A stretch of 64,000 nucleotides of DNA from an uncultured Chloroflexia bacterium (GCA_963706515.1 CAVPMW010000011.1:65675-129674), one strand, 5' to 3'; positions 25,897-45,618 are shown, counted from the first letter of the stretch. Program-made: numbers and translations. Notes: generated by a model not told the origin, from the letters alone.

Positions 25897-25962
25897 GCCA
25901 GTCGTACGCCCTCAGTCAATTGAGACCATCCTCACCCAGCGGTTGAAACACCAGGCGAGGTG

Positions 25963-28900
25963 CTATGGCTCAGTAGGTATATCCTTCCGTTCAGTCATGT
26001 GAAAGACCTCTATAACGGCGTCTGCCACTGCACTGAGAGGGCTAAGCAGATTTGGGACAGTCGCGGGCGTTACGCTGGGATCTGTGCCAATATCCAACGC
26101 GATAGGCGCATGCAAAGAAATAGTCTGATTTGCAGGGCGCAAGCCCTTATCCACCGCCAGGGCTTGTTGTTCGGGCGCCAGGAGATAGTCTTCGTAGAGC
26201 CGTGCCGCCTCGTGCTGCTCCTTGGTGACCCAGTCGGCATCCAGAATGCAATACGGATGTTGCGCCCAGAACGTGCCATGTGCGGGAAAGATAAAGACTA
26301 ACGGGAACGGCAGCAAGTTCCCATATTTGGCATTCGTCTTGAGGACCTCTGCCTCATTGGTGTTGACAGCGTGCAAGTACGATGGCCCACGCTCCGCCAT
26401 GAGCGCTAACAAATCCTCACTTTGCTTCGCATATACGATGGTGTACTGTTCTACTTCACGCATGGCGCTTATCACCGCATCGCTCTTGACCAGGTCGGGC
26501 GTCAGCCCGCTGGTCAAGCCAAGCTTGTCGTATGCAAGCGTCGTCATAATCAGCAGGCCTGAGTTCGAGTAGTCAGGAAGGGTATGCCCAAATTTGAATT
26601 GACCCCATTCCGGGTGACCGTAGGCTGCCCATCCCTGTGGGTCGGCTGCCAGAGCTGCTAACCTGTCCCAGCCGATCGCCTGCTTGGGCCAACCCATTGC
26701 CTCGGCCATCGGTCGCCACATTGCAAAACCGATTGGATCGTACACGGTTGGTGCACAGGTTTCGGAAACGAGCGGCTGACCGGTGCGAGCCTGCCAGGTC
26801 TGATTGGCCTGGTCCACCCAGCTCTGGTCGCCAGGACTCCACACGGTCGGTTGAATCTTGCCGTCTAAGATGTCCTTCATTGAGCCGCCAGAGATGACCT
26901 GCGTAACGGTAACGACGACCGTTTTGCCTGAGGTGGTTTTGACTTGTTTGGCGTTGAAGGCAGCCGTCGCGGCGTTAATCCAGTCCTCTTTGGACGAGGA
27001 GGAGTAGAGTGAGATATTTACCGTGTCAGCATTATCTTCAGGCCATTTTGAGCAGGTCTTGCGGTACGGCTGATTCGACGGCAGGTATTGCTTCCACTCG
27101 ATCTGGGTCAGATTGCGACCAACGACCTCGCAAACGTGGCTTTGCCAATCTGCATCCCAAAATGTAACTGTACCATCCTGACTGCCTGAGGCGAGTGTTT
27201 TGCTATCCGGGCTGAAGGCTATGCTGTACACAGCGCCGGTGTTGCCGGAGAGCGGCTGGCCTAGAGCTTGATTTGTGGCTGAATCCCAAAGGCGGATGGT
27301 GCCGTCCTCGCTGCCTGAGGCGAGCGTTTTGCCATCCGGGCTGAAGGCTACGCTGAAAACATAACCGGTGTGTCCTCGAAGCGGATGGCCGATGAGGTTG
27401 TGCGTCGCTGCATCCCACTGTATGACGGTGTTGTCCGCGCTGCCCGAGGCAAGCCTCCGACCGTCCGGGCTGAAAGCTACGCTATTTACCCAGTCCGTAT
27501 GACCGTTCAGGGGTTTGCCGATAGGTTGCTGCGTTGCCATATCCCATAAGACGATGCTATTGTCCTTGCTGCCCGAGGCAAGCGTCTGCCATCGGGGCTG
27601 AAAGCCACGCTATATACCCAATCCGTGTGACCTTTCAGGGGTTGGCCGATCGTTCGACCGGTGGCTACATCCCATAGGACGATGGTGTTGTCCGCCATAC
27701 CCGAGGCGAGCGTCTTCCCATCGGGGTTAAAGGCCAGGCTGGTTACAAGCTCGCCGTGATTTGCGAGTGTACTGGGCTCGCCTGTCGTCGCCTGCCACGG
27801 CAAGATATAAATGTCCCCGGCGGCTGATGCAACCATCTTGCCATCCGGACTGAAGGCTAAGGCTGTAATGCGATCGGCCTGAGCTAGAGGCGGGCCGCTG
27901 GCCGGGTGTGCCGCCTCGTCCCAGAAGAGCATGGTGCCGTCGGTGCTGGCGGAAGCCAGGGTCTTTCCATCTGGGCTAAAGACCACGCTCCTCACGGATC
28001 CGCTGTGACCGCGCAAATTGCGAGGCAGCTGTGTGTACTGTTCCTGGGCGGTGATTAATGCATTACGCGCTTCTGACAGTGTCGTACGCGTTCAAAGCTT
28101 CAATGCTGAGCAGGCCGGCCAGGTCGGGCTGGTCGCTCATGTGGCTCATAGCCTGGGCTGCCAGCTGGCGCGATCGTGCGAGACGGGTCTGCGTTTGGTA
28201 CTGGTTCCAAAGATACCCTGCCAGGACGGCCAATACGACCGCCATCCCTGCGACTAGCGGCGATTACCCGATTGCGCGCCTGCAATTTCTTTATGGCCTC
28301 TTTTTCGCGCTGTTGCCGGGTGGTCTCCTGAATCTGCTGCGTCCTGTCGCTCTGCCAGGCTGGCCTCGAGATACGCGCGCTCATTGCTTCGTCAACGCCA
28401 GTTCGGTGCTCGCCGCCCAGCCCTCAAATTGAGCCAGTCGCGCACCTTGCAGCAGGAAACTCGCCTCCTGGTTTGCATTCAGCCATTCTTCCTCAGCCGT
28501 CGCCAATTGGCGTTGCAATCGCAGATCCACCCGGCTCGCATCCAGCCAATCGCTCAACCGCCGCCATTCACGCAACAGCGCTGAGTGCGCCACCTCCACG
28601 GTGGGTGTGCGTGTGCTGGGATCGCGGTCGAAGGAGAGCAGGCGGGATCTGCCGAAGGACTTCGATTACTGCCTCCATCACCCCCGCCTGCCAGCTCAGG
28701 GCTGAGGCTGGTTGGGGAAGAGCGGGGGGGAGACCTCCATCAGGTATCGACCCGTCAGGCTCAGGTCCCCTGGCCGAGTCTTCGGTAGCGGCAGGTGTAC
28801 CGAAGTCAATCGACATTAACTCTGACTGTGAGATTCGTCGCCGGGTGTCCTTTACGCCTTCACCGAGTGTCACCAACCGCAGGAATAACTGGCGCGTGGC

Positions 28901-30675
28901 AGACTGCCCCGCTTTGTCCAACCCGGCATAGCCTTCTCTGCACGCCGGCCCAACGCCCCGCCTACCCCGCCAACCCGTTGATAAGCCTTCCGGGTCAGAT
29001 GGCGACCTTCGCGCCGCTCGAATAGCTCGGTCAGCGCGTACTGCAGCAACGGCAGTGCACTGGGTTGCTCATTCACATCCGCTACGATCGCAGCAACCAG
29101 GCCAGGCTCCAGCGTTACCCCAACTCGTTCGGCTGGACCGGCGATCGCGCGTACCAGCTCATCTGCCATGAGCGGCATGACAACCTCCGTGCGTTGGCGC
29201 AGCAGGTTGCCAAAGTCCGGATGCAGGAGCGGGCGATCGTAGAAGTCTGCCCGTAGGGTTATGATCACGCGCAGGCGGCTGGTCGGTTCAGTGACGGCTG
29301 TAAAAAGACTGCTCAGAAAGTGCGCGGTCTCCGCTTCGTCGTCGACGAGTGTAAATACGTGTTCAAATTGGTCAATGACGAGAACTAATTCACTATCATC
29401 AGCTGGCAGGACCAGCTGTGTGGCTCGCAGCAGCCCGCGTTCATCTCGCTGCAGCTGCTCCATCAACCCGGTGGGCTGGTTGACCGCGATGCGCAGCAAA
29501 CCGATTTCAAGTTCTTCCAACGGATGTGCGCCAGGCGACATCTCCACGATGAACCACTTTTCCGAGCCAGGCAGCGCACCGCGCCGCAATGCCGGGAGCA
29601 GACCAGCCTTGACCACCGACGATTTACCGCTGCCGCTGGGTCCGACAACGGCAAGGAATCGCCCGGCTTGCTGGGATTCTCTCAATCGGGTCAACAGCTG
29701 TTCGGTCAGCGCCTCGCGCCCAAAAAAATCGGCGGCGTCGGCCTGCTGAAAGGCGCGCAAACCCTTATAAGGGTTCGATATTTCCACTTGCGATAGGTCG
29801 CTCTTTGCTATGGTTGTCGTCGCAGTTGTCCCGAATGCCTGGTGAAGAGCCGTGACAAACGCCATCACGTCTGAGTAGCGCTCTTCCGGGTTGAGAGCTG
29901 TGGCTCGCTGAATGACAGCGTCCAATTCAGATGGCAAATCCAGGCGCCCCCGCGGTCCAGTAAGATACGGATTACTGCCGGCTGCCATGGCTTTTAATTT
30001 AGAGTGAGGGGATCGCCCAGTCAGTGCCTCATATACCACGAGACCCAGGCTGTATTGATCACTGCAGGGGGTGGCTGGTTCGCCGCGTATTTGCTCTGGT
30101 GCGAGGTAAGCGATTGATGTGGCGGCGGCAGGCTTCCCATCGCCAACAGCGCGGCGCACGTCACTGGAAATTCCAAAGTGGGTGAGATAGCCATTACCCT
30201 CGTCATCGAAGAGGATGTTTTCCGGCTTCAGATGTCCATGGACAAGGCCTTGCCGGTGGGCGGCCATCAATGCCGCCGCGATTTGCTCGACCAGGCACGC
30301 GGTGGTGCTGGTCTCCAACGGACCCTTGCGAAGCAAAACGCGCAAACTGCCCCCACGCATCCAGCGCATGACGATGTAAGCACCGTCCGGCTCCCGCCAG
30401 TAGTCGTATAAGGGGAGGATGTGTGGATGCTCGACCTTTGCAATCAGTTGGGCTTCGGCATCGAAGCGTCGTATGAAATCGGGTTGATTCGCGTACTCAG
30501 GAAGGATGACTTTGATCGCGACCTCACGCCCAACGAGGCGGTGGTAAGCCTGGTAGAGGGACCCGAACTCGCCTGTACTGACGTGCTGGCGTAATTCGTA
30601 ACCCCGTATCTCGCCTTTAGAGAGCCGTTCCTTGAAATCGTGGAGGTAAGCGATGCGCCGTGAAACCGTACACAA
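25963..30675 (-). pseudogene. giant multidomain STAND signalling protein: degenerate Ser/Thr-kinase domain - P-loop STAND (nSTAND/NACHT-like) NTPase - helical region - TM helix - 7 WD40 blades - C-terminal solute-binding-protein-like domain; at least 6 frame changes
   Basis: Fragments 28870..30675, 28568..28921, 28381..28599, 28100..28384, 28063..28245, 27507..28016 and 25963..27540 join colinearly. The kinase lobe carries VAIKVI, HGHLKPEN, HFG and APE. Walker A is VVGPSGSGKSS and Walker B is LVLVIDQFEH. The TM helix is MAVVLAVLAGYLW. Seven repeats of GH..V.SVAFSPDG..LASGS.D.T..LWD follow. The tail (QPTVWSPGDQSWV...) resembles the SBP module found in SBP-vWA proteins. Confidence 0.8.
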
Positions 30676-30699
30676 GTACTTGATTGAGGAGGAATAACA

Positions 30700-31566
30700 A
30701 TGAACACTAGAATTACTATAGTCCTGGTATTACTGCTGATCTGCGTTGCCCAGTCTGCCTGCGGGATTTCTCCGGCTGAGAAGTCAGCTACTGCCACGCA
30801 AGCAGCCGCGGAAGCTGCTGCTGCCAGCTTCGCCACCCAAACGGCTCAAGCTCCCACGGGAACTCCGACTTCCACCTCCAGCCCCACGGTCACGCCTTCA
30901 CCGACCGCTACCGCCACGCCGACGCCCACCCTAAAACCCACGAATCCCTCGACGGTCACACCGACCGCTACGCCTCAATGGATGGGCGCGGGGTTGGTCC
31001 TGGAGGATCTACCAGAAGGATCGAACGCCAGCTGCAGGAAAGAAGGGTGCCAAGCTCTTCTTCGGCAGGGTTTGCCTCCGGATTCTCTAGTTTTTGGGTT
31101 TGGAGATGAAGCTAAGAGCCAGGCTGTTATGGGTTATTACTTGTTTCTCCCAATCCGTGCTGACCAGCTCACATTCGACGGAATGCTGCAAGCAACGCTC
31201 GATTATTTTAGCCTCATCCATGGGCGCGACGACGGAGAAATGCAAGCCAATCCACGTCCAGGATGATGTAGGCGATGCCCGCCTGGCCTCTACGTTCGTA
31301 TTAGATCAAAATGGGTTTCAAATCTCGGTTTGGATATGATCTTGTTCCGCCGCGGTGGAGAGGTTGCCGCATTCTTCTTCGTTCTCTATCCAGATGGTGA
31401 CAAGCCGGTCGTGCGCATGATCGATCTTGCCCATTTGTTCAGACGGGCGGATCCAGGAGCACTTCCAAAGTTATCCCTTCGTCATCTACCACTACCCACA
31501 TTTCCACCGGCCAGAAGGGTATTAGAACCGGTCTGTGATCCGGGTCAGATGTCAGTATCAGATTAA
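30700..31566 (+). pseudogene. secreted lipoprotein with Pro/Thr-rich linker, about 2 frameshifts; end uncertain
   Basis: MNTRITIVLVLLLICVAQSACG is a lipobox signal, followed by a PT-rich linker. The C-terminal domain continues through frames 30700, 31094 and 31330. Confidence 0.55.
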
Positions 31567-31599
31567 TCAATACTCTATTTGACACCAAGGAGCTGCGTC

Positions 31600-32285
31600 A
31601 TGAGTGAAGGGACCAGGATGTTGGAGGTAGAGCAACCATCTGATGAGCCATCAGAGTCGCTTTCCTGGCGTCGGACCTGGCTGCTGGCCGTAATTCGGCC
31701 TTCTGTGGCCACCTCTCAGGCGGATTGCATCTGACCCAAATGCGACGGGCAGGCGGGCATACCTGCGGACGTTTTCAGCCACGTTCCTCGGAGAGAGCAT
31801 ACGTAGCCTTGAGATTGGCTCCTTCGGCGCAGGGCCGAAGCTCGCAGGACCGGAGGCAATTGGTAAACTGCCTGCCGTTCAACGTGATAATGGCAGTATT
31901 GTCCTTTGCCATTGTTTCAGGGGTGACCCATTCGTTGGCGAGAGGATTATTTCATGGCGGCGGGAGATACCCAAGCCTGCTCTACGCATTCGCTTCATTT
32001 TATGCACCTTTGTATATCCTCAGCAGCCTGGTCAGCGGAATTCTCTACCTCAACTGTCTTTATGTTCTGCTACTGGGTTATACCTTCCTGCTTGGCGCCA
32101 CAGCAATCCGGGCAATCCACGGGATTGGCTGGGGGCAGGCGGTGGTTTCCTTTTTGACTGGTCTCATGATCGTGTTCGGCGTCGTGGCTGTTTTTACTTT
32201 TTGTACGTTGGCGTTATTATTAGGCCCAAGTATCGGCGATGGATTTCAGAACAATATTTCTGGACCAGCCAGTGTGCAGTTTTAA
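31600..32285 (+). pseudogene. Yip1-family multi-pass membrane protein, frameshift near the N-terminus
   Basis: ATG 31600 follows AAGGAG (MSEGTRMLEVEQPSDEPSESLSWRRTWLLAVIRPS...). The TM core lies in ORF 31725..32285. Confidence 0.55.
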
Positions 32286-32426
32286 GCGTTTCATTGCCTC
32301 GCCCACTACAACGGGATGGCTTGGCAGGATCTTAGTGGGTGAAGGGGAGCCCGGGGAAGTGGTGTCGGAGTGTTACTTGTGCCAATCCACCCAGCTAAAT
32401 GAGATTACGTTTTGGGATGACGGAAG

Positions 32427-34119
32427 ATGGAAAAATCACAGGAACCGACAGATTCTGACAATTTTCTGGGGTGTCTGGTAGTTGCATTATTCGTATTAAT
32501 TTGGTTTATCGGAGGATTTCGGAATACTCCCGAAGAGCCGCCTGCGCAGGATACCCACACCCCTACGGTCAGTGCTGTTTCTTACCCTGATCCCACGACC
32601 TTTCGTATCGTGGCTGAGAGCGCGGTCAAACCGCTGCAGGATGCCGGGATCTTCGATGATTTCACCAAAGAGACCGGCATCAAGCTGAGCATCGATTATC
32701 GCGGACCGGTCGACGTCCGCAACGCCGTGAGCAACCTGGGCAAGAACAACCGAAAGACGGTGGATGCCTACTGGCCGGGGAGTCTGCTCTGGCTGCCGGG
32801 TCTGCGGGAGGCCCAGTCCCGTTTCGGTTGCGAAGACCTACGTGGTGCTGGCCGTCGATCCGGCCATCGCTAAGGAGCTTGGCTGGGATACGGCCAGGGA
32901 AATTGGCGCTGCCTCCGACCTGGTGAGCGCCATCCAAACCGGGAAGATCAACCTGGCGATGACCTCTGCCTCGCAGAGCACGCCCGGCGCAGCCTTCTAC
33001 CTGGCGATGTACACCGCCCTCACCGGGCAGCGGGTGCTGACCTCCAATGATCTCAACAATGCCCAGGCCCCTTGGACATCAAGACGATGCTGGCCGGCGT
33101 TGACCGCTCATCGGAGAACCTCGACCACCTCGACAGCGCTTCTTATCACCAGAAGACGTCGGGCTAATGAAACGAACGCCATCGTCATCTACGAGAGCCT
33201 CGCCACCCAGATGAACCAGGCGCTGATGGAAAAGGGCCAGCAGCCGATGACGATCTTTTATGTCGATCGGGCGACAGCCATCGCCGATATGCCCCTACGC
33301 TACGTTGACAACGGCGAAACCGGCAGGTTGGAACAATATCAGAAGCTGGTGGCATTCCTGGCCAGGCCTGAGATCCAGAAGAGGCTCCAGGCTCTCGGCC
33401 GGCGTACCAACCCGATCGGCATGCAATGTGAGGACTGCGACCCGGCGGTATTCAACCCGGCCTGGGGCATCAATACCAACACCGAGTTCCAGGAGATGGT
33501 CTTTCCCAAATCGCCCGTAACCAGGGCCGCGCGCTGGACCAGTATCAAACGCTCTTCCGCAAGCCGAGCTTCACCGTCTACTGCCTGGATTATTCTGGAA
33601 GTATGGACGGTAAGCGGCAGGGATGCAGATGGTCGACGCCATGGATCTTCTGCTCGATCAGGAGCGGGCGGCCGGTGTGTCGCTGCAAGCGGCCCCAGAC
33701 GACGTCACCGTGGTCTTCGGCTTTTCATACTGAAGTCCGCCAGGTCGGCGAGCCGGTCATCGGCAACGTTCCTTCAGCTCTGAAGGACTTATCAAGTCAG
33801 ATTGTCAGGTTTCAGCATGGGCCAGGGCACCGCCATGTTTGACTGCGTCAGTTTGCCCTCGACTACATTGCGGGTCAGACCGACCCGAAATATATCTAGC
33901 TCCGTCATTGTACTGACCGACGGGGAGTTTAATAAAGGTGCAAAGCGTCCTATTTTGCCAGCTATTACGGACGCAGAATTCAATCTCCCGATTTACGCCA
34001 TCGCCTTCGGCGACGCAGACTTCGGCCAGCTCGATCAGTTTAAGATGACCGGCGGTGACGTTTACGACGGTCGCCAGGATGTCGCCGCCGCCTTTCGCCT
34101 GGCGAGGGGCAACAACTGA
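32427..34119 (+). pseudogene. membrane-anchored solute-binding-like + von Willebrand A (vWA) domain protein, several frameshifts
   Basis: The N-terminal TM segment is LGCLVVALFVLIWFIGGF. The SBP-like part contains IDYRGPVDV...VDAYWPGS. The junction reads LDQYQTLFRKPSFTVYCLDYSGSMDG (MIDAS DxSxS), followed by GTAMFD and VIVLTDGE. Fragments 32427, 32764, 33603 and 33802 plus internal shifts make up the gene. Confidence 0.75.
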
Positions 34120-34131
34120 TGGGAGGATGCC

Positions 34132-34832
34132 ATGGGAAATGATGATAAGCGGATAACTCCGCAGGAGCTCGTTGCATTCGGGGTGGGTGTCACCGTGACC
34201 ATTGTATCGTCGTGATTACCAGCCTGGTCACCCCGATCCTTTCCCGTTCAACTTTCTCGATCAGCCTTGCCCTGGGCGCGGCGGCTGCCTACGGGGCGCT
34301 CAAGGTGCTTGACCCCGTACCAGCAAGACCTGATCGAAGCGCAGACCAAAGCCGAGTACCGGCGGATGCTGCAGGAGATTGGCGATTTCGCCGCGCGGAC
34401 GGGCAAGGCAAGCCAGAGCCTTCGCGTGGGTAGCCCCGAGGTTCCGGAAGGCTTGCCAGTATCGCCAGAATGACCGAGATGATCCACGCCCGTTACCAGG
34501 GAGCACCCTCGCGATTTCGCCGGGGCCTCAGCCACGCTGCTGATCCTGCAGAAGTTCGACGGGACGCTGGCAGCACTATCTGAAGGTCAAACGTGGTGAG
34601 TTGTTCATGGACGCGAGCGAAGAGAAAAGAGATCATCTAGACCGAGACGCGTGATATCCCTATGACTGAAATAGCCCTCGGGAAACTTGGCAAAAAGCTC
34701 GACGCGGGTGAAGCCCTCGATAAGGGCATCTCGAAGGTGACGTTGGAGAGCATGCTCCAATCATTGAACCTGATCCAATCTTTGAGCGACCAGATTGATG
34801 CCAGTCCTGAGATCGGAGACTTCGATGACTAG
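34132..34832 (+). pseudogene. XpaC-like (5-bromo-4-chloroindolyl phosphate hydrolysis protein family) membrane protein, several frameshifts
   Basis: ATG 34132 follows GGGAGGA. Two hydrophobic helices are followed by helical segments (YQQDLIEAQTKAEYRRMLQEIGDFA, LLILQKFDGTLA, MTEIALGKLGKKLDAGEALDKGISKVTLESMLQSLNLIQSL) spread over three frames. The family call is from memory. Confidence 0.45.
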
Positions 34833-34868
34833 TACACGCAATTTCATGTTCGGGTTCGCCCTACGGCT

Positions 34869-35962
34869 ATGGTCTCGATGATCGTTATTCTGATTTTTGG
34901 GTGGTGTAAAATCTTTTCCTGCCCGGCACCCCCACCCCTCCCTCTGCCGACGCCGACGCCAACGTCGTCTCCCCCCTCTGTTTATGTGTATGGCGGGTAT
35001 CGCTGCTTTGAAGACGAGCAATGCCTGGCTCTGCTCCGTGACAAGTATCATATTGAAGTCACAGGGGAATACCGCAAGGGCACATTTGGCATGGCGGATG
35101 ATTACAAGCCCAGTGTCGAGTGCATCTGGCCGGGAAGCAATACAGGGATCGACGATTTTCGAGCCAGGCAGCCCTGTGAAGATCCGCAAGTCGGCAGTGA
35201 TCTTCCAAACGCCCATTGCCCTCTTTACCTGGAAGGAGCTGCTGCCCGAGCTTGAAAAGGCTGGTCTCGTATATGCCAAAAATGACGTCTACTTCTTGAT
35301 GCTTGCAGCCGCTGGTAGATGCCATGGTCGCAGAAAAGCAGTGGAGTTCCTACGTCGGCGTCGCCATTCCCGGCTACGTACGGGTGGAGTCGCCGGCAAC
35401 TGATCCAGCCTCAAGCTCCAGCGGCATGCTGTGGCTGGAGATGATGGGCAATTTCCTGGTACCGGGTAATGACAGGGGCGGCAAGGTGCTTACGGCTGCC
35501 GATCTGCAGGCTAATCCGGATATCCTGCCCGCGGTTATACACCTACTGGGAGAACCAGGGCCTGCAGGTCGATACCACCAGCAAGCTGTTCGACAAATTT
35601 ATCAGCTCAGGAGCCGGCATGCCGGTCATTGTGGCGTATGAGAGCAGCTTTATCGACTGGTATGAAGCCCAATCGGACAGTATGAAGGCGCAGGCAGCCA
35701 GGATCGTTGGGCTCTACCCGGAAATTACGTCAACACGGACCACACGCTGGCATCATTGGCGCCCGCCTGCGACCCGCTGGTGGATGCACTCGCCAGCGAT
35801 GCCCAGCTTCAGGAGCTTGGCTGGCTAAAGCATGGCATGCGCAACAGCACAGGAGGCATCGGGGCAAAGCCGCAGAGCGCCTCGTGGTTCGCAGCCAGCG
35901 TGCCTTACGTCCCCGAGGCAAAGATCGACGTGTATCAGGCAATCAAGGACGTGTTGAAGTAG
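34869..35962 (+). pseudogene. solute-binding-like lipoprotein paralogous to the N-terminal half of the vWA protein, several frameshifts
   Basis: The signal is MVSMIVILIFGWCKIFSC, followed by a Pro-rich linker. GEYRKGTFGM...VECIWPGS parallels IDYRGPVDV...VDAYWPGS in 32427..34119. Fragments 34869, 34897, 35303, 35469 and 35756 make up the gene. Confidence 0.6.
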
Positions 35963-36003
35963 GGGATCGACCACCGGGTTTCATATAGAAGAAAGGATGC
36001 AGC

Positions 36004-37188
36004 ATGGACAACTTATCAGCTCAAGGTAACGCAGAGTTCGAAAGCCATCGTTACGGCTCAGGAGTACTCGCGGGAAATCAAGAAGTCACCGGCGCTGCCG
36101 CCGCTATCCGAACAGGAAATGGCTCGCGCCCCGACCAGGCTAAGACCCTGGTCCGGAGCGAGGACCGCCTGGAGGACATCGTCACCTTCGGGAGCGATGC
36201 TCAGGCAGGCGTGGCGAAAATCACGAAAGATATGCTGGCCGGGGTCCGGGTCGGCACGCTGGACGAGGTAATCCAGCTCTCGGAAGGCGTCCTCGCCCAG
36301 ATTCAGACTCTCGATATCAAAGACCTTTCACCAGTTGCCCGAAGGGTGGTGTTTGCCATTCTCGAAACAAAGACCGCCATCGAACAGCGCATTAAGAATT
36401 TCTTCAGGAGATACGAGCTGGTGAATACCCGTCTGGATCGCCAGGAGGCGGATATCTTTGCTAAGGAAACAGCCTCTACCGAACGCTACTACAAAGACGC
36501 TGAGCTCGCCAAAGCCGCCTTCGGGATATTGCTGGATGCTCGCTGCAAAGTGATGGCGATTAAGATTTTTCTGGAGGGCGAGCATGGCTATTCTCAGCTT
36601 CAGCGCCGCCAGCAGGCGGTCGTTGACGAACAACAGGCTGCCCGCAGGGATAACCGCTCCATAGACTATGCGATCGTCGCCGCAGGCGATCGCTATGCCA
36701 GGTATATCCAGCGCCTGGAAGGGAAAGCGGCAGGGCTGCATCAGGTGATCCTCTCCGCTTACCAGACGACCATTACCACGCGCATGATGGGTGATAACGA
36801 GATCATCATCCGGCAGAAGCTGAGCGATATCCGCACCGATCTGCTGCCGCAGTGGCGTACGCTGATCGCTATCGCTTATCAGGCTTACCAGCAGGAAGGC
36901 ATCGCCCGGTTCGTCCAACAGCTTACTCGTTCCGAAGCGGAGCTGCGCCACCAGGTTGCCGACCAGCTCGAAACGACAGCAGAAGGCGTAGCCGATCTTA
37001 TGACCCGCCCGCTCTTCGATTATGAGGCCATGCAGTACAACAACGACAAGCTGGTGAAATCGCTGGACATCCTGAAAACTGCCTCGATAGAGGCTAAGAA
37101 TATCCGGGATAAGGCAGAAGAGGAAATGCGAGCGCTTATCAGCCAGTTAGGCGACGCCGTCGCTGCGACCTCGGTGCGCAAGGAATAA
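36004..37188 (+). CDS. telA: TelA-family toxic anion resistance protein
   Basis: Intact 394-aa all-helical ORF. The architecture is typical of TelA/YaaN (…RYELVNTRLDRQEADIFAKE…, LLPQWRTLIAIAY…). Confidence 0.75.
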   Translation: MDNLSAQGNAEFESHRYGSGVLAGNQEVTGAAAAIRTGNGSRPDQAKTLVRSEDRLEDIVTFGSDAQAGVAKITKDMLAGVRVGTLDEVIQLSEGVLAQIQTLDIKDLSPVARRVVFAILETKTAIEQRIKNFFRRYELVNTRLDRQEADIFAKETASTERYYKDAELAKAAFGILLDARCKVMAIKIFLEGEHGYSQLQRRQQAVVDEQQAARRDNRSIDYAIVAAGDRYARYIQRLEGKAAGLHQVILSAYQTTITTRMMGDNEIIIRQKLSDIRTDLLPQWRTLIAIAYQAYQQEGIARFVQQLTRSEAELRHQVADQLETTAEGVADLMTRPLFDYEAMQYNNDKLVKSLDILKTASIEAKNIRDKAEEEMRALISQLGDAVAATSVRKE

Positions 37189-37209
37189 CCAACTAATAAT
37201 GATCGCTCA

Positions 37210-39420
37210 GTGCAGAAGGAGAGACGAACGAGAACCCATATCCGGTCATATTCAGCAATAATCGTTCTGCTGCTTACAGCGGTGATGTTTGTCAGCCTGT
37301 TCTCCGTACCTCCGCCCGTCGCGGTCCCTGGTACGTGGCTCCAACCGGCAGCGATGCCAACTCTTGCCTGAGCCCTGGAAGTCCGTGCGCAACGATAATA
37401 GGAGCTATCAATAAGGCGTCTCTTCCGGCGACAACGATTTCACGTGGCGATCTCGGAGCTTTATATTATTAGCACGAATAGCGAAGTGGTGCTAATTGAC
37501 AGGAACATATACCTTTCTGGAAGGGCGGGACCTAACCTTTACTACACAAGGGAGTAATTCCACCATTGATGGAAATGGAGCGTATAGTGGGATCGTTATA
37601 AATAGCGGCGTGACAGCTACTGCCTGATCGGTTTGCCGTTCATAATGGTTTTGGCTATGGGGGTGGAATCTCGGAACGGTGCGGGCACTCTGAGCCCCTA
37701 AACAACAGCACCATCAGCGGCAACACGACTATATTTTTAGCTAAAGCTGGAGGGGCTCAGCGACGAGGTACCTTACTCGCCCGTGAACAGCAGTATCATT
37801 AGCGGCAATACAGCCTATTCGGAAAGCAGTGGGGGGATCTATAACGTAGGTACCATGACCCTATATAACAGCACTATCGGCGAGAATATGTGGCGGGAAT
37901 GGCGGCAGGCATCCGCAACGACGGCAATATGATCCTATACAAGAACAGTACCGTCAGCGGTAACACAAGCCAGGTCGGCGGTGGCATCTACACACAAGGT
38001 TCGGTGACATTGCAAAACACCATTCTGGCTGGCAATGCATACTTTAGGGACTGGCCTAGATTGCTATGGCTCGATCACCAGCGCCGGTTACAACCTGATC
38101 GGAGGATACGAGCGGCTGCACCATTTCCAGCGAGACACCGCCACAGGAAACATCACAGGGCAGTGGATCCCTTGCTGGGTACCTTTGCAAGACAGATGGT
38201 GGTCCAACGCTCACCCAGGCGCTTCTGCCCGGCAGCCCGGCCATCAACGCTGGCAACCCGGCTGGCTGTACCGATCAGCAGGGTAATCCTTCTCACTCCG
38301 ACCAACGAGGTAAACCCCGCGTCGGTCGCTGTGACATTGGCGCTTATGAATTGCAGCCGCTTAGGGTTTTCTGCCAAGCTGGCGGATCGCCAAGTTTCTC
38401 ACCACTGGGGAAGCCATTTCATATACCATCACACTCGACAACCCTGGTGCGGCTGAAAGTCACTGGCGCGCAGTTATCCGACGCTCTGCCTGCTCATCTC
38501 GGATTTGTGAATGGCTCGCTATCCGCGAGACAAAGGCGCAGGCAGCATCTTATCAGAATGGTGCGATTTCGTGGAGCGGGTACGCTGTGCTGCGCAGGAG
38601 CAGGTGCAGGTTGGCTTTTCGCTGCCACCATCGATGACTTGGCGTCCATCGAATCGACCCATCGCCAATACGGCAGAAATCCGAGGCGGTGGGGAGGTTT
38701 TCGCTGCGAAAGGCAGCCGTGCTGGTGAGAGCCTGTCGGATCGAGCCCTATCGAAATCATCTCCCAGCCATCCTGAGGCCTTGCCATCCCCCTCTACTCT
38801 GACAACTTCAGCAATCCTGCCAGCGGCGTGGCTTGTGGGCGGACGATGGAGATAACCGCTACGAATACCTGAACAGGTGAGTACCGCATCCTGGTACGCC
38901 CGGCTCCCATGGGGGGCAGGCGTCGATCCCGGGTTCCAGTCTTGCGGATTACTCCGTCGCTGTCAACCTGCGGAACCTCATTATGCGGCTCGACGGCTGG
39001 TATGGGATTGCCTTCGGGGTCGCTGGCGATTGGAGCACATTCTACACGTTGGAGATCTATCCGAATGGCTGGTACGGTATTTACCGTTATGACCCGACCG
39101 CCATTGTTACTCTCTCTGAGGCATCGTTCACCAGCAATCCCATCAGGGCAGCGCGGCCAACCAGATCAAAGTCGAGCGGATTGGATCGACCATCAACGCC
39201 TACGCCAATGGCCAGCTTCTGGCAAGCGTTGACCGATGGCACCTACGCTGGCTCCCGAGATACATCGGGCTAGTGGTGTTCAGTGATAACCAGCCGAACG
39301 TTGATATCCGTTTCCGATAATTTCACTGTACGTGCTCAAGCGGCTCGTGCTGGGCCGGCTGCTGCCTTGAGCGTTACGGATGGGGCTTCTGAATTGCCGG
39401 CTCAGCGATTTCTCGAGTAG
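37210..39420 (+). pseudogene. secreted beta-helix / choice-of-anchor-Q-like / DUF11-like surface protein, heavily frame-disrupted
   Basis: The GTG 37210 signal anchor is IIVLLLTAVMFVSLF. Recognisable pieces are YVAPTGSDANSCLSPGSPCATIIGAINKA, repeated N(S/T)T(I/V)SGNT motifs, CDIGAYELQP, a DUF11-like segment and a C-terminal NQIKVERIG..INAYANGQLL...FSDNQPNVDIRFDNFTV. More than 10 frame changes by eye. Confidence 0.55.
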
Positions 39421-39563
39421 ATCCAACGCGTTGAGAAAAGCCATGGAAAACTCCAGCGGTAAAGCAGGTGAGTCGCATGCCAGCCAGGGGAATCCCCATC
39501 TGGCTGGTAATTGCCCGCCGCGGACCCTGGTAATTTAACCGGATAAAGATCGAAGGTGATCGA

Positions 39564-40193
39564 ATGACTATTGAAGATGAACTTCGACCTGAGCTAACGC
39601 CGGTACCGGTCTGGAACAACTGGCACTGCCGCCACCGGCTCCTGCTAACAAGTCGGAGCAGGAGTGTATTCATCATCATTGGTGGGCTGATCGTTTTTCT
39701 GTGCGCTTGTTTGGGGATTTCTGGCACCTTGCGTAGGGATTTGTGGCGGGACCATTGGCGCGTTGGCGGTCAAGACTTATACGGAAGAGGCCAAAGGTCG
39801 AAAGCGTCATATGATGATTGTGTCTGGGCCTGATGGCTGGTAAAGAGGCCAGTCAAGCCTATCGCCTGTTTTCGACTCGTGCGGAAAAGAAATGTATCGT
39901 TAGCCGACAACGAGAAACTCTTGGAAGGCAATAATTACACGCTGTTTGAAGGCTATCGAGGTGTGACCATCACCGGCGTAGCACGCCTCAACGCCACCGT
40001 TCACTCGGACCCCGATATGCCCCAAGGACAGGTTACCGAGGTAGAAGGTGAGATTTCCTACTCTGACGGTTATACGGGCACCTTCAATGCTGTTTCTTGA
40101 AAGGACGGAGATGAGTGGCGACTCTTCGGTATCAATGTTACAGTCCCACCGGACAAGTTCGGTCCTAGGTTTTCTAGTAATAGCCAGCTTTGA
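39564..40193 (+). pseudogene. hypothetical membrane-anchored protein, about 2-3 frameshifts
   Basis: ORFs 39564..39833 and 39879..40100 plus a tail ending at TGA 40191-40193 read colinearly (TM segment VFIIIGGLIVFLCACLGI; ...EGEISYSDGYTGTFNAV..GDEWRLFGINVTVPPDKF). Confidence 0.4.
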
Positions 40194-40280
40194 GCAGTTA
40201 AGCTAATCGATTGATGGTGAATTGGTTGTCCAGAGAGGAGCTTCCATTATGATCGGACCTTTAGGATTCTAGTAGGCGAA

Positions 40281-40517
40281 ATGGTTGCACTGTTTTTCGC
40301 TGTCTACCTGATCGAGAGGAGCTCCAAATCCCAGGAACAAACGGGCAGACGATCCCATTTCGTCCGAATAGTAGGAATTTTAGTAATGATTGGCGTTGCT
40401 GCGGGAATATGGTTTGGCGGGAATATACAATGCCTTGTAATTCTGGGGATATTTATCCTGCTGGGATATGGTATTTTCAGATATTTTGGGAATGTCCGTT
40501 CTCGTCCTCTCGATTAG
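40281..40517 (+). CDS. small two-TM membrane protein (78 aa)
   Basis: ORF 40281..40517 with hydrophobic helices (IVGILVMIGVAAGIWFGG, LVILGIFILLGYGIF). The RBS is weak. Confidence 0.4.
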   Translation: MVALFFAVYLIERSSKSQEQTGRRSHFVRIVGILVMIGVAAGIWFGGNIQCLVILGIFILLGYGIFRYFGNVRSRPLD

Positions 40518-40529
40518 TCTCAAGAAATA

Positions 40530-40697
40530 ATGGGAACCTCGGACAATGTAGCACCGCTCCCTCGCAAGGGATTGGCGCGAAACACAAAAATCGTCATCGG
40601 TTGCAGTACTGTTATCCTCATCGCCATCGGGCTGATATGCACTGGCACAGGTTATTTTAATCTACACCCTCAAATAAGCTCTCATCACATTGGCTGA
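40530..40697 (+). CDS. small single-TM protein (55 aa)
   Basis: Below the ORF-track cutoff. The product is MGTSDNVAPLPRKGLARNTKIVIGCSTVILIAIGLICTGTGYF.... It lies 12 nt after the previous small ORF. Confidence 0.3.
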   Translation: MGTSDNVAPLPRKGLARNTKIVIGCSTVILIAIGLICTGTGYFNLHPQISSHHIG

Positions 40698-40731
40698 TAA
40701 ATGCCGTCTCTTCACCCGTTATAATTGCCCA

Positions 40732-42177
40732 ATGCAACGAAATTTCTTACCCCGCTTGTGGCAGGGGCTGATCCTGCTGCTGGTCTTACTCGTTCCACTG
40801 GGCGGGTTGCAAGCGGGGCGCCATCCAGCGCACTTGCCCAGTCCGGCGGGGTGACCGCCTTCGACCTGATCATCGCCATGAACACGCTGCGCGCTTCGTA
40901 CGGGCTGCCGGCGCTGGTGGAAGACCCGATCATCGACGCCGTCGCCCAGTCGACGGCGGAGATCATGGCTGCCAACAATATGTCGTCGCACATCGGCGAC
41001 GTGCGCGGGCGGCTGCAGGCGGCCGGCTACGGCGGCGGGGCGCAGGTGTGGGCGACCGAAAATTTCGCCGTGGGCGGCATCCTTCGGCATCGACGAGATC
41101 ATGCTGGTCTGGTGCGACGCTTCGCACATGATCCCGGCGGTCAACCCGGCTTACTGCAACGTCGGGGCAGGGGTCGCCAAAGCCGCCAACGGGCGCACCT
41201 ATTACATCTTGCAGGCGGCCTACACCTCGGCTAAATCCTGCGGGGAATATAAATCCGTGGGCGGCGGGAGCAACACCCAGCCCGGCGGGGTGACGGGCGT
41301 ATCGCAGATCATCATCCCGGTGAAGATCGCCACGCCGGACGCCGAAGGCAGGGTCTTCCACGAAGTGAAGGCCGGGCAATCCTTCTGGGCCATCGCCGTG
41401 GCTTACAAGATCACCATCAACGACCTGGAGGTGTGGAACAATCTTTCACGAGCAGAACAAGCTGCAGATCGGGCAGAAGCTGTTCATCCCCGGCAGCAAC
41501 ACGAAGGGCTATGCCACGCCCACGCCGGTGGGCATGATCCAGGTAGCACGCCCGACGCGGACGGCAGGATCGTGCATTCCGTCGCAGCCCTACAACACGC
41601 TGATCACGATCGCCGATGCCTACGGGGTGAAGGTCGATACTATCCTGGCGAATAACGGCCTGCAGGTGGATTGGCCCTTGCAGATCGGGCAGAAGCTGGT
41701 GATCGACCCGGGAACTTTACCCCCAGCCCTACCCCCCGCCCGCTGACCCCCATCGAGAAGCTCACCCCGGCCAGCGATGGCAAGTATTACCACACGGTCA
41801 GCAGCGGGGAGACGCTGTCGTGGATCGCCGGTTATTACGGCGTGAACATGGGCGAGCTGATGGCCTGGAACGGGCTGAGCGCCAGCTCGATCATCTTCCC
41901 CGGGGAAAAGCTGCTGCTGCAGGTGACGCCGCCCGCCACCGAGACGCCCGTGCCCCCGCCGGCAACGCCCACGCCGCTCCCTGTCGCAACCTTTACGCCG
42001 TCTCCTACACGTGAAAGCTCCGCGGCGCAGCCGCCATCCCCCACGGCGACCCCCGCCGAGCCTGTAGCGGAGTCTCCCTTCGCCGGTGGGAAGCTTACAG
42101 GCATGCTGATCTTATTTGTCGCTCTGGCTGCAGGGGGATTGATCGTAGCGGGATTTTTCATGCGCCGGAAATCGTAA
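40732..42177 (+). pseudogene. secreted CAP/SCP-domain + 3x LysM protein with C-terminal TM anchor, several frameshifts
   Basis: The signal is MQRNFLPRLWQGLILLLVLLVPLGG and the CAP-like part is NTLRASYGLPALVEDPIIDAVAQSTAEIMAANNMSSH...ENFAVGG. LysM repeats are HEVKAGQSFWAIAVAYKITINDLEVWNNL, ...YNTLITIADAYGVKVDTILANNGL and HTVSSGETLSWIAGYYGVNMGELMAWNGL. The TM anchor is MLILFVALAAGGLIVAGFF. Confidence 0.7.
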
Positions 42178-42282
42178 GGGCTAGCTGGCTGTCCTCAGGC
42201 TTGGGTAGGGTATTACCCTCCCATTTTAGGGGAGGCCCAGGGAGGGATCGCTTCCCCAACCGCCTGTCGAAAGCCCCGCCCA

Positions 42283-42444
42283 GCGTGAACTGAGCGATCT
42301 CGGGCGTGGTGCATGTTCACATACCAATCCCTCCTTGCGTATACCTTCAGCACTCTGACATTCGTCCACCAAGCGATTGAGGCCGGCGAAGATGCTCTAA
42401 AAGTTATACGCTCTGCAGAGAGGGTGGGCCGCATCTCCACGGTG
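42283..42444 (+). repeat. copy 1 of a roughly 150-160-bp direct repeat family whose right end resembles a reverse-strand tRNA 3' end
   Basis: A 93-nt block (gcgtgaactgagcgatctcgggcgtggtgcatgttcac...ccaccaagcg) differs at 4 positions (hand count) from 44396 onward. The tail aaagttatacgctctgcagagagggtgggccgcatctccacggtg is shared with copies 2 and 3. Confidence 0.85.
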
Positions 42445-42548
42445 GGTGTAATAGATGGAAAAAGCCTGTATCCTATCAAAGTTATTGATTGGTACAGGCT
42501 TTTTGATAGTCGCGCTCCATTCCATTTCTAAAAAATGGTTTATAGCGC

Positions 42549-42577
42549 TTTACGCTTAGCGCAATGCGTTATATAAT
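42549..42577 (+). promoter_or_regulatory. candidate sigma70-type promoter of higBA (TTTACG-N17-TATAAT) with overlapping inverted repeat
   Basis: tttacg at 42549-42554 and tataat at 42572-42577. The agcgct...agcgc inverted repeat spans the -35 element. The ATG at 42590 implies a very short leader. Confidence 0.4.
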
Positions 42578-42589
42578 ATATCGGAACAC

Positions 42590-42871
42590 ATGATCAAATC
42601 TTTCAAGAGCAAGGAAACTGCCCGAATCTTTGCCCGTTTGCGCTCGACCCGGTTGCCAGGAGACATCCAACAGGTCAGCTACCGTAAGCTACGTATGCTT
42701 AACAATGCCGTCACATTGGACGATCTTCGAGTTCCTCCAGCAAACCGGCTGGAGAAGCTCAGCGGTGACCGGGCAGGGCAGTACAGCATCCGGATCAACG
42801 ATCAATGGCGGATCTGCTTTGAATGGATCGATGGTGATGCCTATAACGTAGAAATCGTGGATTATCATTAG
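42590..42871 (+). CDS. higB: HigB-type toxin (plasmid maintenance system killer, RelE/ParE superfamily)
   Basis: MIKSFKSKETARIF...LEKLSGDRAGQYSIRINDQWRICFEWIDGDAYNVEIVDYH is the canonical HigB pattern. Confidence 0.9.
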   Translation: MIKSFKSKETARIFARLRSTRLPGDIQQVSYRKLRMLNNAVTLDDLRVPPANRLEKLSGDRAGQYSIRINDQWRICFEWIDGDAYNVEIVDYH

Positions 42872-42882
42872 GAGCTGGTAAT

Positions 42883-43185
42883 ATGAACGAGAAGCTAAAT
42901 CCTGTACATCCTGGGGAGGTACTGTTAGAAGAATTCCTCAAGCCAATGGGTTTGAGCCAGAACCGGTTGTCGTTAGAGATCGGGGTACACCCCCGGCGGA
43001 TCAATGAGATCGTGCTCGGCAAGCGGCGCATCACTGCCGATACTGCCCTGCGCCTGGCGCGCTATTTCGGCACATCACCCCAGTTCTGGATGGGATTGCA
43101 GAACGATTATGATCTAGATGTGGCTGCCGATACCTTGGGAGACAGGCTGGATATCGAGGTGCGGCCTATGGCGGTATCTGGGTAA
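42883..43185 (+). CDS. higA: HigA-type antitoxin (XRE HTH)
   Basis: HPGEVLLEEFLKPMGLSQNRLSLEIGVHPRRINEIVLGKRRITADTALRLARYFGTSPQFWMGLQ. The gene starts 11 nt after higB. Confidence 0.9.
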   Translation: MNEKLNPVHPGEVLLEEFLKPMGLSQNRLSLEIGVHPRRINEIVLGKRRITADTALRLARYFGTSPQFWMGLQNDYDLDVAADTLGDRLDIEVRPMAVSG

Positions 43186-43230
43186 TTCTAACGATACGGG
43201 GTTCTTGGTAGGTTCGTCTCAGGAAAACCT

Positions 43231-43258
43231 GCGGAGAGGGTGGGATTCGAACCCACGC
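43231..43258 (-). other. isolated tRNA 3'-end fragment (T-arm plus acceptor 3' strand), no 5' half
   Basis: The reverse strand reads GTGGG TTCGAAT CCCAC CCTCTCC G. The expected GGAGAGG 5' acceptor strand, D-arm and anticodon arm are absent in the 90 nt upstream. Confidence 0.65.
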
Positions 43259-43536
43259 TGGTTACGTATAAGCTGTCCTACCAGAGAGTGCTGCGTGCTG
43301 ATTGCTGCGTGGATCCTTCCCGCCAGAAAGCTCGATACATCACCTCGAAATTAACGGCAAGCCTGTCAAACAGGTGAGGAGAGAGCTTATGCGTACAGCG
43401 ATGGCGATCTTGCCGCCTTGGCGGTTCGAAATGTTCTACACCGCAAAGACGCAAAGCTCGCCAAGCTATAAGTTTCAAAAGTCAGCTTAGCGATCTTGGC
43501 GCCTTAGCGGTTAAATTTATATAGAATGGATCTTTA

Positions 43537-44049
43537 TTATTTCGCCCTTAATTCTCTCGATTGCACGAAAATGCCGGCTGCTATGAGCACGAGGAAGAGG
43601 AGAGACGCAACGGCGGCGCCCAAGGTGAACATCCCGTTCACCTTTCCTGCGATGGCATTCGCGCCAGCCCAGGAGGTGAGCAGGATGAGGCCCCAGTCAA
43701 ACAGGAAGATCATCAACAAAAAGCCCACTACAGCCCCGATCAGCGCCATCAGCATCCAGCTCCAATTGATGCCAAACATGCTGAGGAATAGCGGCAATCC
43801 CACTGCTCCCGCCAGCGCCCCAACGATGTAGCCGACGATCTTGATAAACTTGGTCGCCAGCCAGGCGAAGATCGCGCCGATAATGATTGCCACGATCAAC
43901 CCCAGCCACCCGCCTCCGAACACGTTATCGAACAGGTTGAAGATGAACAAAAATGCCACCATCGCGGCTGCCAGCCAGAAAAACCGGCGCCCTGCGAAAA
44001 GCAGGATCAGTCCTGCTACGACCGAAAGAATTAACGAGATCCATTCCAT
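43537..44049 (-). CDS. multi-pass membrane protein (DUF4203/TM7S3-like), 170 aa
   Basis: Intact ORF with a GGAGG RBS and five or six hydrophobic helices. The function is unknown. Confidence 0.65.
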   Translation of the reverse strand: MEWISLILSVVAGLILLFAGRRFFWLAAAMVAFLFIFNLFDNVFGGGWLGLIVAIIIGAIFAWLATKFIKIVGYIVGALAGAVGLPLFLSMFGINWSWMLMALIGAVVGFLLMIFLFDWGLILLTSWAGANAIAGKVNGMFTLGAAVASLLFLVLIAAGIFVQSRELRAK

Positions 44050-44395
44050 GTTTGCCTCCGTATTGTGAGACGTGTAACGAGTCTAGAAAGTGACCGTCCA
44101 AAATGTATAACCCCAATCGGGTCTGGAAGTTCTTCAAATCATTCACCGCGGAGAAGACATTTACCGCAAAGCTTTGCGGCGGTCTCTGCTTCGGACCGGA
44201 ACTCGATCGGTTTGCCGCACCTACCCCAATCCTACAAAATAACTGTGACATAGAGGTAGATATCGGATATATGAGCACCGGTGTCGAAATCGTGCTGCAG
44301 ATTTCTGACAAGACAAGCACTTGTCTTGTAACATTTTGACTATCGCCGAAGAGTATATACCGTGATGGATAAGCCATTAAAAGAGAGATCGCCTT

Positions 44396-44540
44396 GCGTG
44401 AAATGAGCGATCTCGGGCGTGGTGCATGTTCACATGCCAATCCCGCCTTGCGTATACCTTCAGCACTCTGACAGTCGTCCACCAAGCGCTGCTGTCGGCG
44501 ATGACGCACTGAAAGTTATACGCGCTGTGGAGAGGGTAGG
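44396..44540 (+). repeat. copy 2 of the direct repeat family (see 42283)
   Basis: gcgtgaaatgagcgatctcgggcgtggtgcatgttcacatgcc...aaagttatacgcgctgtggagagggtaggt, in the same orientation as copy 1. Confidence 0.85.
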
Positions 44541-44799
44541 TGCCCGCCAGCCGAGCGTGAAGTAGACTAAAAGCAATTATTAGCCGGCTCTCGATACTGA
44601 AACCTGGGATTTTTCACAAGTCAGAATAAGAATGGATCGCTTATAATTAAGACAATCAACATCTTATTACTGCTAGAATGCCTTCCATTCTGTTTCATTG
44701 AACAATAAAGGAGTTGCTGGCGATCGAGGGGTAATCAGCCTCGCTAAGGAGTGCTGGCTTGGTCCTCAGCCCGTAAATACGATCTATCGGAGAAATATC

Positions 44800-45558: not shown

Positions 45559-45618
45559 GAGGGTAAAAAAACAGGTATCTGTTTTAGAATTTAACTTTGA
45601 GGGATTTGGGAATATCGA

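Follow-up and report, generated by a model that had tools for sequence, protein, structure and literature searches.

The region at positions 25,963-37,188 of a 64,000-nt DNA stretch from an uncultured Chloroflexia bacterium (the window) consists of two adjacent units: a four-gene operon ending in TelA, and a damaged giant gene for a candidate sensor-regulator. The first unit (32427-37188) encodes a solute-binding protein (SBP) fused to a von Willebrand factor A (vWA) domain, an XpaC-like membrane protein, a second SBP and TelA, and the second (25963-30675, minus strand) is a single gene. An even chance is given here to the reading that the TelA module is self-contained and is switched on, in one narrow clade, by the membrane regulator encoded beside it, and that the window copy has lost this circuit. 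An earlier note, made from the window sequence, had described seven loci sharing one theme; the domains it listed are present, but they belong to two separate units and no general joint system was seen.

TelA and XpaC have for decades been tied to resistance to tellurite and to envelope-active antibiotics, with a mechanism lacking. Across many phyla, the pair usually accompanies two proteins of SBP fold, one of which bears a vWA domain, and this suggests an external recognition step. In one Chloroflexi clade, the operon lies under a promoter with SARP-type repeats and beside a candidate sensor-regulator, which provides a testable handle.

The close clade comprises six contigs: the window; L001, L086 and L167, which are related contigs from sister ENA assemblies; L170, a related 415-kb contig also deposited at NCBI; and L171, a related contig from a short-read assembly. 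L087 is a locus with 400 nt of flank. Since TelA as a single-sequence probe of genome contigs found no relatives, a family alignment of the "type B" SBP-vWA protein (A1) was used in its place to scan genome and metagenome collections, and 160 loci were obtained. For the giant gene, the 120 best relatives of window 28873-30675 (proteins P0175-P0294) were compared. Within 25963-37188, only TelA is an uninterrupted gene of the expected size, all others being frameshifted. Scans of the window for tRNA genes and Rfam families were empty.

The TelA operon

In the window, the four genes follow one another on the plus strand with intergenic gaps of 13, 37 and 42 nt, in the same order as in L006-L166, and this shared order, strand and tight spacing mark them as a conserved operon. 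The first gene (32427..34119) encodes a membrane-anchored type B SBP-vWA protein, which was delimited by tblastn with the intact relative P0125 and by alignment A1 and which switches frame at least 8 times. Pfam gave weak SBP_bac_11 and VWA matches on its fragments, and an orthologue reached 31.8 bits for SBP_bac_11. The complete metal ion-dependent adhesion site (MIDAS) that had been proposed was recovered, as DYSGSM, GTAMFD and LTDGE all occur in the window, on different frames, and are invariant in alignment A1. In an AlphaFold model of a type B protein (predicted local distance difference test score 86.4), an N-terminal helix is followed by a linker, the SBP and the vWA domain; among solved structures, the SBP comes nearest to binding proteins of the FbpA, AfuA and FutA type, and the vWA domain to those of CLCA1 and CMG2.

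The second gene (34132..34832, plus strand), with at least 6 frame switches, encodes two transmembrane (TM) helices and a helical domain. Its designation as XpaC-like stands at the level of profiles, where the clade protein matches the XpaC-family profile with 90.9% probability (hhalign, E 1.2e-6), and agrees with its two hydrophobic segments and its place between SBP-vWA and SBP; a Pfam match to PF10112 (XpaC / Halogen_Hydrol) was, however, not reached by the L001 or L171 orthologues at E <= 0.05. The third gene (34869..35962, plus strand), with several frame switches, encodes the second SBP-fold protein, which has no Pfam match and was recognized by hhalign to the type B SBP (99.2%); one count placed it in 143 of 165 loci. 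It had been described as a lipoprotein, a description at odds with an N-terminal hydrophobic helix in 126 of 128 sequences and a lipobox-like motif in 3 of the 128. Finally, TelA (36004..37188, plus strand) has no hydrophobic segment and is intact, as had been claimed: it matches PF05816 at 2.3e-19, with 70.1 bits against a Pfam gathering score of 30, over positions 14-328 of the 332 in the model.

Loci with the operon were found in Clostridia, Chloroflexia, Thermomicrobiales, Desulfobulbaceae, Acidobacteriota, Armatimonadota, Spirochaetes and Bacteroidales, in one metagenome-assembled genome (MAG) of Gammaproteobacteria and in one Woesebacteria genome; type B SBP-vWA relatives also occur in cultured Firmicutes and Bacteroidota. 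The recurring order on one strand is SBP-vWA (~535 aa), a ~205-aa protein, SBP (~352 aa) and TelA (~375 aa). The ~205-aa gene occupies the XpaC position in 141 of the 160 loci, the second SBP is present in ~147 and TelA in 79 of the 119 loci long enough to show it, and PF10112 was matched by 36 of 40 sampled ~205-aa proteins. No further recurrent partner was detected among the 160 loci. Apart from a single unrelated kinase, kinase or STAND matches near the operon were confined to loci closely related to the window. The proposal of a system in which a vWA/TelA/XpaC module is generally joined to a STAND protein is thus not borne out, no kinase-STAND neighbour having been found at some 160 loci across many phyla.

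Simple hydrophobicity counts gave one N-terminal segment in 143 of 156 SBP-vWA proteins (102 with a lipobox-like motif), two segments in 103 of 133 XpaC-like proteins and none in any of 78 TelA proteins. These counts suggest two binding proteins outside, XpaC in the membrane and TelA inside. In such an arrangement, a ligand or surface state would be recognized externally by the two SBP-fold proteins, one of them fused to vWA, and the signal may then be relayed via the two-helix XpaC protein to TelA at the inner face of the membrane.

PADLOC-DB 2.0 gave no match for SBP-vWA, XpaC, SBP or TelA, and NCBIfam had no specific model for any operon protein. By sequence search, the PDB contains no structure of TelA or XpaC, and for SBP-vWA it matched in the vWA part only. 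In the literature covered, which did not include Anantharaman et al. 2012, no description of the four-gene TelA operon was found. In the loci without TelA (about a third), the genes at the TelA position are unrelated to each other; in a Leptospirales MAG (L060 13203-14801), a 7TM-SpoIIE (PP2C-type) phosphatase follows the SBP at this position.

The giant gene and its family

The giant gene is represented in the window by a 5'-truncated copy (25963..30630, minus strand), for which Pfam and orthologue comparison gave a pseudokinase, an nSTAND1 NTPase, a TM helix, seven WD40 repeats and an SBP. The kinase, STAND, WD40 and SBP domains named by the earlier note were all placed by Pfam, in order, on the minus strand. 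Its claim of one giant gene stands in part: in the window the coding sequence is not continuous but split over at least 7 open reading frame (ORF) pieces, yet it can be read as one gene because L170 carries the orthologue as a single ORF of 1,658 codons (BTAD-kinase-nSTAND1-WD40-SBP, ending ...RRDIPTEP). In L171, the BTAD, the kinase and the start of nSTAND1 all lie in one frame. Over window 25941-30630, the DNA identity to L167 is 91.8%.

The kinase-like domain (29806..30600, minus strand; Pkinase 1.7e-39, residues 26-228) carries HGHLKPEN and HFG where an active Hanks-type kinase has the Asp residues of HRD and DFG. The same HGH and HFG are found in L001, L167 and L171, and L170 has HGH and HIG. 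The domain is predicted to be dead, and the label "pseudokinase" is both correct and specific to this clade, since HRD is kept in 110 and DFG in 112 of the 120 best relatives. Next to it, the nSTAND1 NTPase (28465..29772, minus strand) is interrupted by frameshifts and matches PF20703 with 292 bits (1.3e-86), model positions 1-271, 272-307 and 333-377 lying on three ORF pieces; both the P-loop GPSGSGKSS and the Walker B segment LVLVIDQFEH are present. A single hydrophobic stretch after nSTAND1 (28207..28266, minus strand), MAVVLAVLAGYLW, corresponds to VIIVVAGMAVVLAVLAGII in L001. An equivalent helix stands 406-469 residues past the P-loop in 31 of the 34 relatives long enough to judge, so that the single TM helix proposed earlier is real and a shared trait of the family. 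It is followed by the WD40 propeller (27136..28016, minus strand; PF00400, in stretches of four and three repeats). The helix-WD40-SBP part is most likely extracytoplasmic, in line with the earlier placement of propeller and SBP outside the membrane.

The C-terminal SBP domain (25966..27093, minus strand; SBP_bac_11 5.5e-15, 56.2 bits) belongs to the "type A" SBP-vWA family, being 56-67% identical to the SBP half of these ~590-aa proteins. Type A proteins are very abundant in Chloroflexi (1,703 matches), carry an N-terminal helix anchor and are encoded among an FGE-sulfatase protein and proteins of 120 and 268 aa, without TelA. The giant protein stops precisely where SBP gives way to vWA in the type A proteins: residues 53-401 of P0008 align to its very end. 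Only two further WD40-SBP fusions were found, P0004 and P0006, and both stop at this boundary too. A WD40 plus SBP query of the representative library was dominated by WD40 repeat proteins.

By these comparisons the domain appears to have been captured from the type A family and not from the adjoining SBP-vWA gene. The giant gene and the vWA protein had been thought to carry the same kind of SBP module, but tblastn gave no similarity between the giant-gene SBP and either operon SBP. Relatedness emerges at the profile level, where hhalign linked it to the operon SBPs with E 1.3e-9 and 1.9e-7, the two operon SBPs being closer together (99.2%, E 2.8e-19). All three regions have an SBP_bac_11-type fold by profile or fold match and do not fall into unrelated families. 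A vWA remnant past the giant-gene stop was considered and rejected, as homology does not extend beyond the exact domain boundary and the downstream sequence has nothing vWA-like. As a separate observation on type A loci, the conserved neighbourhood in L003 (8767-12964), L004 and L005 (8654-12957) consists of a small ORF, a 272-aa FGE-sulfatase protein, SBP-vWA, a 120-aa protein of TM helix plus coiled coil and a 268-aa secreted protein.

Searches with the kinase-nSTAND1 part gave more than 3,000 relatives, for the most part from Anaerolineae and other Chloroflexi. The family layout is helix-turn-helix (HTH)-kinase-nSTAND1-TM helix-WD40, with a kinase of the active type and, in some members, other C-terminal domains in place of WD40. 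About 70 of the 120 best relatives bear an N-terminal BTAD/SARP, XRE or LuxR-type HTH, and their C-terminal ends consist of WD40 repeats in many cases and of a cyclase domain in some. The five clade orthologues outside the window (L001, L086, L167, L170 and L171) start with a BTAD head (Pfam matches of 3.4e-15 and 1.7e-14), and the intact form in relatives combines a BTAD/SARP head, the dead kinase, nSTAND1, the TM helix, the WD40 propeller and the SBP. Because the orthologues have this head and HTH heads are widespread in the family, a transcriptional output is favoured over a STAND effector switch. Counter-invader systems were the setting in which the nSTAND1 clade was defined, and kinases are among the N-terminal heads listed for it (Kaur et al., 2021; PMC8195603). 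The present family, which combines DNA-binding heads with external sensors, looks like one of signal transduction, and the recurrent TM helices suggest STAND NTPases wired across the membrane as one-component regulators. Such a family would widen the view of STAND proteins as soluble cytoplasmic sensors.

Synteny, a shared promoter element and the state of the window copy

In five of the six clade contigs (the window, L001, L086, L170 and L171), the giant gene is divergent from the TelA-containing unit. The genes between it and SBP-vWA vary from contig to contig: L086 has none, L001 one for a lipoprotein, the window those for a lipoprotein and a Yip1-like protein, and L171 has g264-g194-g199. 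Furthermore, g264 and g194, which encode secreted proteins, lie upstream of the operon in some contigs and downstream of it in others. In the window, the lipoprotein gene (30700..31440, plus strand) is frameshifted and encodes a Thr/Pro-rich linker and the lipobox VAQSAC; its product is 54% identical to the 250-aa protein of L001 and has no Pfam family. The frameshifted gene at 31600..32285 (plus strand) encodes a multi-pass membrane protein, and its earlier label, Yip1-like, is upheld by the intact L087 orthologue (PF04893, 6e-11). Homologues of the secreted or anchored g264 and g194 of L171, which in relatives accompany the unit divergent from the giant gene, were located by tblastn at 38758..40166 (plus strand), past TelA.

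A conserved intergenic element of ~110 nt was found in L086 (4985-5125), L167 (9462-9605), L170 (near 8809), L171 (1850-1985) and L087 (400-565), and twice in L001 (4632-4775 and 5645-5785). Its place is always ahead of the unit facing the giant gene; depending on the contig, the gene behind it is SBP-vWA, the lipoprotein, Yip1 or g264. The second L001 copy lies directly ahead of SBP-vWA, and the L087 copy ahead of Yip1-SBP-vWA. Read towards the operon, the element contains TAACGCT-N4-TAACGCT, two heptamers 11 nt apart, and a further AAACGCA two turns on, which ends 7 nt ahead of a -10-like box, TGCTAAACT; a conserved leader and a ribosome-binding site follow. This layout is typical of SARP-dependent promoters, in which directly repeated heptamers recur every 11 nt near the -10 box.

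The window copy lacks both the element and the head. The BTAD region has no match anywhere in the window, and the element is absent apart from leader remnants at 30631-30668 and 31470-31600, the latter surviving upstream of the Yip1-like gene. At the junction (30631..30699, plus strand), what is left of a Yip1-like gene (5' untranslated region, ribosome-binding site and 6 initial codons) abuts the kinase-coding sequence. Orthologue homology of the giant gene starts at 30630, and 30631-30668 is the antisense of the Yip1-like leader. The start assigned earlier to the ORF, 30675, lies 24 nt from the lipoprotein ATG and is not native, because the 38 nt above 30630 match the L087 Yip1-like leader at 33 of 38 positions. 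With BTAD and element missing and only the leader left, a deletion of ~0.9 kb appears to have taken both promoters, the element and the BTAD/SARP head. The window copy is without the regulatory circuit, and L171 and L170 are better copies for study.

The local link between the two units is real, and it is probably regulatory. Activation of the facing unit by the giant protein, in this narrow clade only, is the most economical interpretation of the layout. The external WD40-SBP part would sense a ligand, the NTPase would then switch or oligomerize, and the SARP head would activate the divergent promoter through the TAACGCT heptamers at 11-nt spacing, driving expression of the TelA unit plus a few secreted proteins. 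A bolder proposal, which we put forward tentatively and regard as more probably wrong than right, is that the protein is a membrane-spanning STAND receptor that is itself the transcription factor, with SARP head, pseudokinase and nSTAND1 inside and WD40 and the type A-copied SBP outside, and that it activates the TelA/XpaC operon, taken as one of envelope protection, through the TAACGCT repeats. Such a receptor would respond to the ligand or surface state that type A SBP-vWA reads, would give the TelA module its first defined input and output, and would be an example of STAND NTPase signalling across the membrane.

Several results weigh against activation of the TelA unit by the giant protein. 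The closest orthologue, in L167, has no TelA operon beside it: ~1 kb replaces the 8.1 kb that matches window 30630-38769, with collinear flanks (L167 9327-8736 and 7472-7160 match window 38769-39380 and 39843-40160). Linkage of the two genes therefore holds within the clade, in the five contigs named, but not in L167, and at none of the ~160 operon loci outside it. L087 has the element and the operon, with no giant gene within its 400-nt flank. Because of L087 and L167, the element could be just a promoter copied by local rearrangements. As the contigs with adjacency are all close relatives of 83-92% DNA identity, shared ancestry could likewise explain the synteny. In addition, a sigma-70 scan of the element called no canonical promoter, and Pfam detected only BTAD in the clade orthologues, and not Trans_reg_C, the winged-HTH part of a SARP head, so that the pair of domains defining the SARP family is incomplete in them.

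The same findings allow the two units to be chance neighbours, the giant gene being one of many paralogous regulators in these genomes and acting on some other target, for example g264/g194 or itself, and the TelA operon being a mobile cassette inserted near a promoter at a site prone to rearrangement. Such a cassette would agree with the ~160 other operon loci without a kinase-STAND neighbour, with L167 retaining the giant gene, the element, g264 and g194 in the absence of the operon, with the shifting gene content between giant gene and SBP-vWA, and with the size of the kinase-nSTAND1 family. We nevertheless consider a chance arrangement unlikely, given that element copies stand directly ahead of SBP-vWA in L001 and of Yip1-SBP-vWA in L087 and that adjacency recurs in all but one of the clade contigs. 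Very improbable, in our judgement, is the model of the earlier note, a single physical sensory or defence complex in the envelope, for example a STAND switch, with no transcriptional output. The headless window protein, the membrane-associated or extracytoplasmic nature of all partners and the definition of nSTAND1 in counter-invader systems (PMC8195603) would suit it; the headless state is, however, a window-specific deletion, co-conservation stops at one clade, the SBP modules differ, no effector domain was found, and PADLOC returned nothing for the operon proteins and generic kinase matches for the giant gene.

The damage in the window reflects either real decay or a poor local consensus. 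Frameshifting indels were assigned to lineages by three-way DNA alignment. For the window, L086 and L001, respectively, they number 11, 0 and 1 in SBP-vWA, 10, 2 and 1 in XpaC, and 3, 3 and 1 in SBP, L167 having no value for these genes; in the giant gene there are 7, 5 and 2, and 4 in L167. The window-specific frameshifts are thus concentrated in SBP-vWA and XpaC, with 21 in 2.2 kb against 7 in 4.7 kb of giant gene. Window-specific substitutions fall at the third codon position in 38% of cases in SBP-vWA, which is almost even, against 57% in TelA and 62% in SBP-vWA on the L001 branch. The indels are mostly of 1 nt, with 4 of 62 gaps in homopolymers, and the in-frame SBP-vWA segments remain 74% identical to P0125, about as in L001. 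Either relaxed selection or a poorly resolved consensus could account for the excess in SBP-vWA and XpaC; we lean towards consensus error, because the ratio of indels to substitutions is high and protein identity to P0125 is unchanged.

Extended to the whole locus, this explanation holds that the organism carries an intact, L171-like locus and that noisy long-read metagenome assembly produced the frameshifts and possibly also the 0.9-kb deletion. We rate its prospects only a little short of even. The sister-assembly contigs L001, L086 and L167 are frameshifted too, at different positions, the excess of mostly 1-nt indels over substitutions resembles a read-error profile more than natural decay, the protein identity of in-frame segments is preserved, and window 37.2-46.2 kb holds no ORF of >=250 aa. 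Pulling the other way are the clustering of the window frameshifts next to an intact TelA, the nearly even spread of SBP-vWA substitutions over codon positions, and the deletion itself, whose clean form and recognizable flanks are untypical of consensus error.

Known systems and further observations

Related arrangements share parts of this layout. Triads of a TerY-type vWA protein, a Ser/Thr kinase and a PP2C phosphatase were reportedly described by Anantharaman, Iyer and Aravind in 2012; they resemble the region in placing a MIDAS vWA protein near a kinase-like protein in a context related to tellurite resistance. Unlike in the triads, the kinase here is predicted to be dead and part of a STAND regulator, and the vWA domain is extracytoplasmic and SBP-fused. 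PP2C, TerD, TerC and TerB were absent among the ORFs of the region scanned with Pfam, some small ORFs lying outside that scan, which accords with the earlier statement that a PP2C partner is missing. With SARP/AfsR-type STAND activators, the orthologues share a BTAD head, a STAND NTPase, a repeat sensor and heptamer repeats 11 nt apart; they differ in having a kinase-like domain between head and NTPase, nSTAND1 rather than NB-ARC, and a TM helix that would put the WD40 and SBP sensor outside, and the window copy is headless. ToxR/CadC regulators and receptor kinases with an external propeller, such as PknD, likewise combine a single membrane pass, a cytoplasmic output and an external ligand-binding domain, but have no STAND NTPase and pseudokinase between output and membrane, an arrangement of which we know of no characterized example.

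The SBP-vWA architecture itself is named in RefSeq as "substrate-binding and VWA domain-containing protein", and plasmid copies in Variovorax stand beside TelA and a ~208-aa protein. Their order differs (SBP, TelA, SBP-vWA, 208-aa protein) and identity is only ~27%. In Variovorax sp. SRS16 plasmid 2 (L168 4076-9111), the permuted module, consisting of a 374-aa protein, TelA, a small ORF, SBP-vWA and the 208-aa protein, lies between a flotillin gene and Wadjet (JetA). A looser parallel is offered by vaults: the major vault protein has been related to TelA, a vWA domain occurs in VPARP, and TEP1 combines NACHT with WD40. The vault-like domain trio in the window (36004-37188, 32427-34119 and 25963-30675) is probably a coincidence. 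A vault review (PMC7916137) mentions both von Willebrand domains and the toxic anion resistance family.

The TelA-XpaC pair is represented by yaaN-xpaC of B. subtilis, xpaC-telA of E. faecium (PMC6811118) and telA of L. monocytogenes, and has been linked to envelope-active antimicrobials. As in these, TelA (PF05816) is encoded here with a two-helix protein of the XpaC family; the differences are that one gene separates XpaC and TelA and that both belong to a four-gene operon with SBP-vWA and a second SBP. The nSTAND1 counter-invader NTPases (PMC8195603) belong to the same NTPase clade as the giant protein (292 bits), and N-terminal kinase fusions are listed among them. In contrast, the HTH heads, TM helix and external sensor found here point to signal transduction, and an effector or EAD domain and a defence-island context are absent. 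The defence-type role suggested earlier also gained nothing from PADLOC-DB 2.0, in which the giant gene gave generic kinase-domain matches only.

Several further features were observed in the related loci and in the window. Downstream of the giant gene, L001 (11300-14831) and L170 (1-3065) encode proteins with faint Peptidase_C25 matches and a second nSTAND1 protein. In L170, TelA is followed by a 787-aa protein with 14 RCC1 repeats (14530-16893), whose C-terminal part shares homology with L171 g264 and with window 38758-39417. In L005 (17620-21761), a 1,064-aa protein with faint NACHT and FGE-sulfatase matches is encoded directly upstream of an RVT_1 reverse transcriptase and resembles the targets of diversity-generating retroelements reported in PMC10907252. 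In the window itself, no ORF of >=250 aa occurs over the 9 kb at 37189-46205, probably another frameshift-dense stretch, and fragments of beta-helix-like repeats lie at 37890-38456. Finally, at 56001-64000 the GC content falls from ~0.56 to ~0.45 with a shift in GC skew, possibly marking a foreign island or an assembly join.

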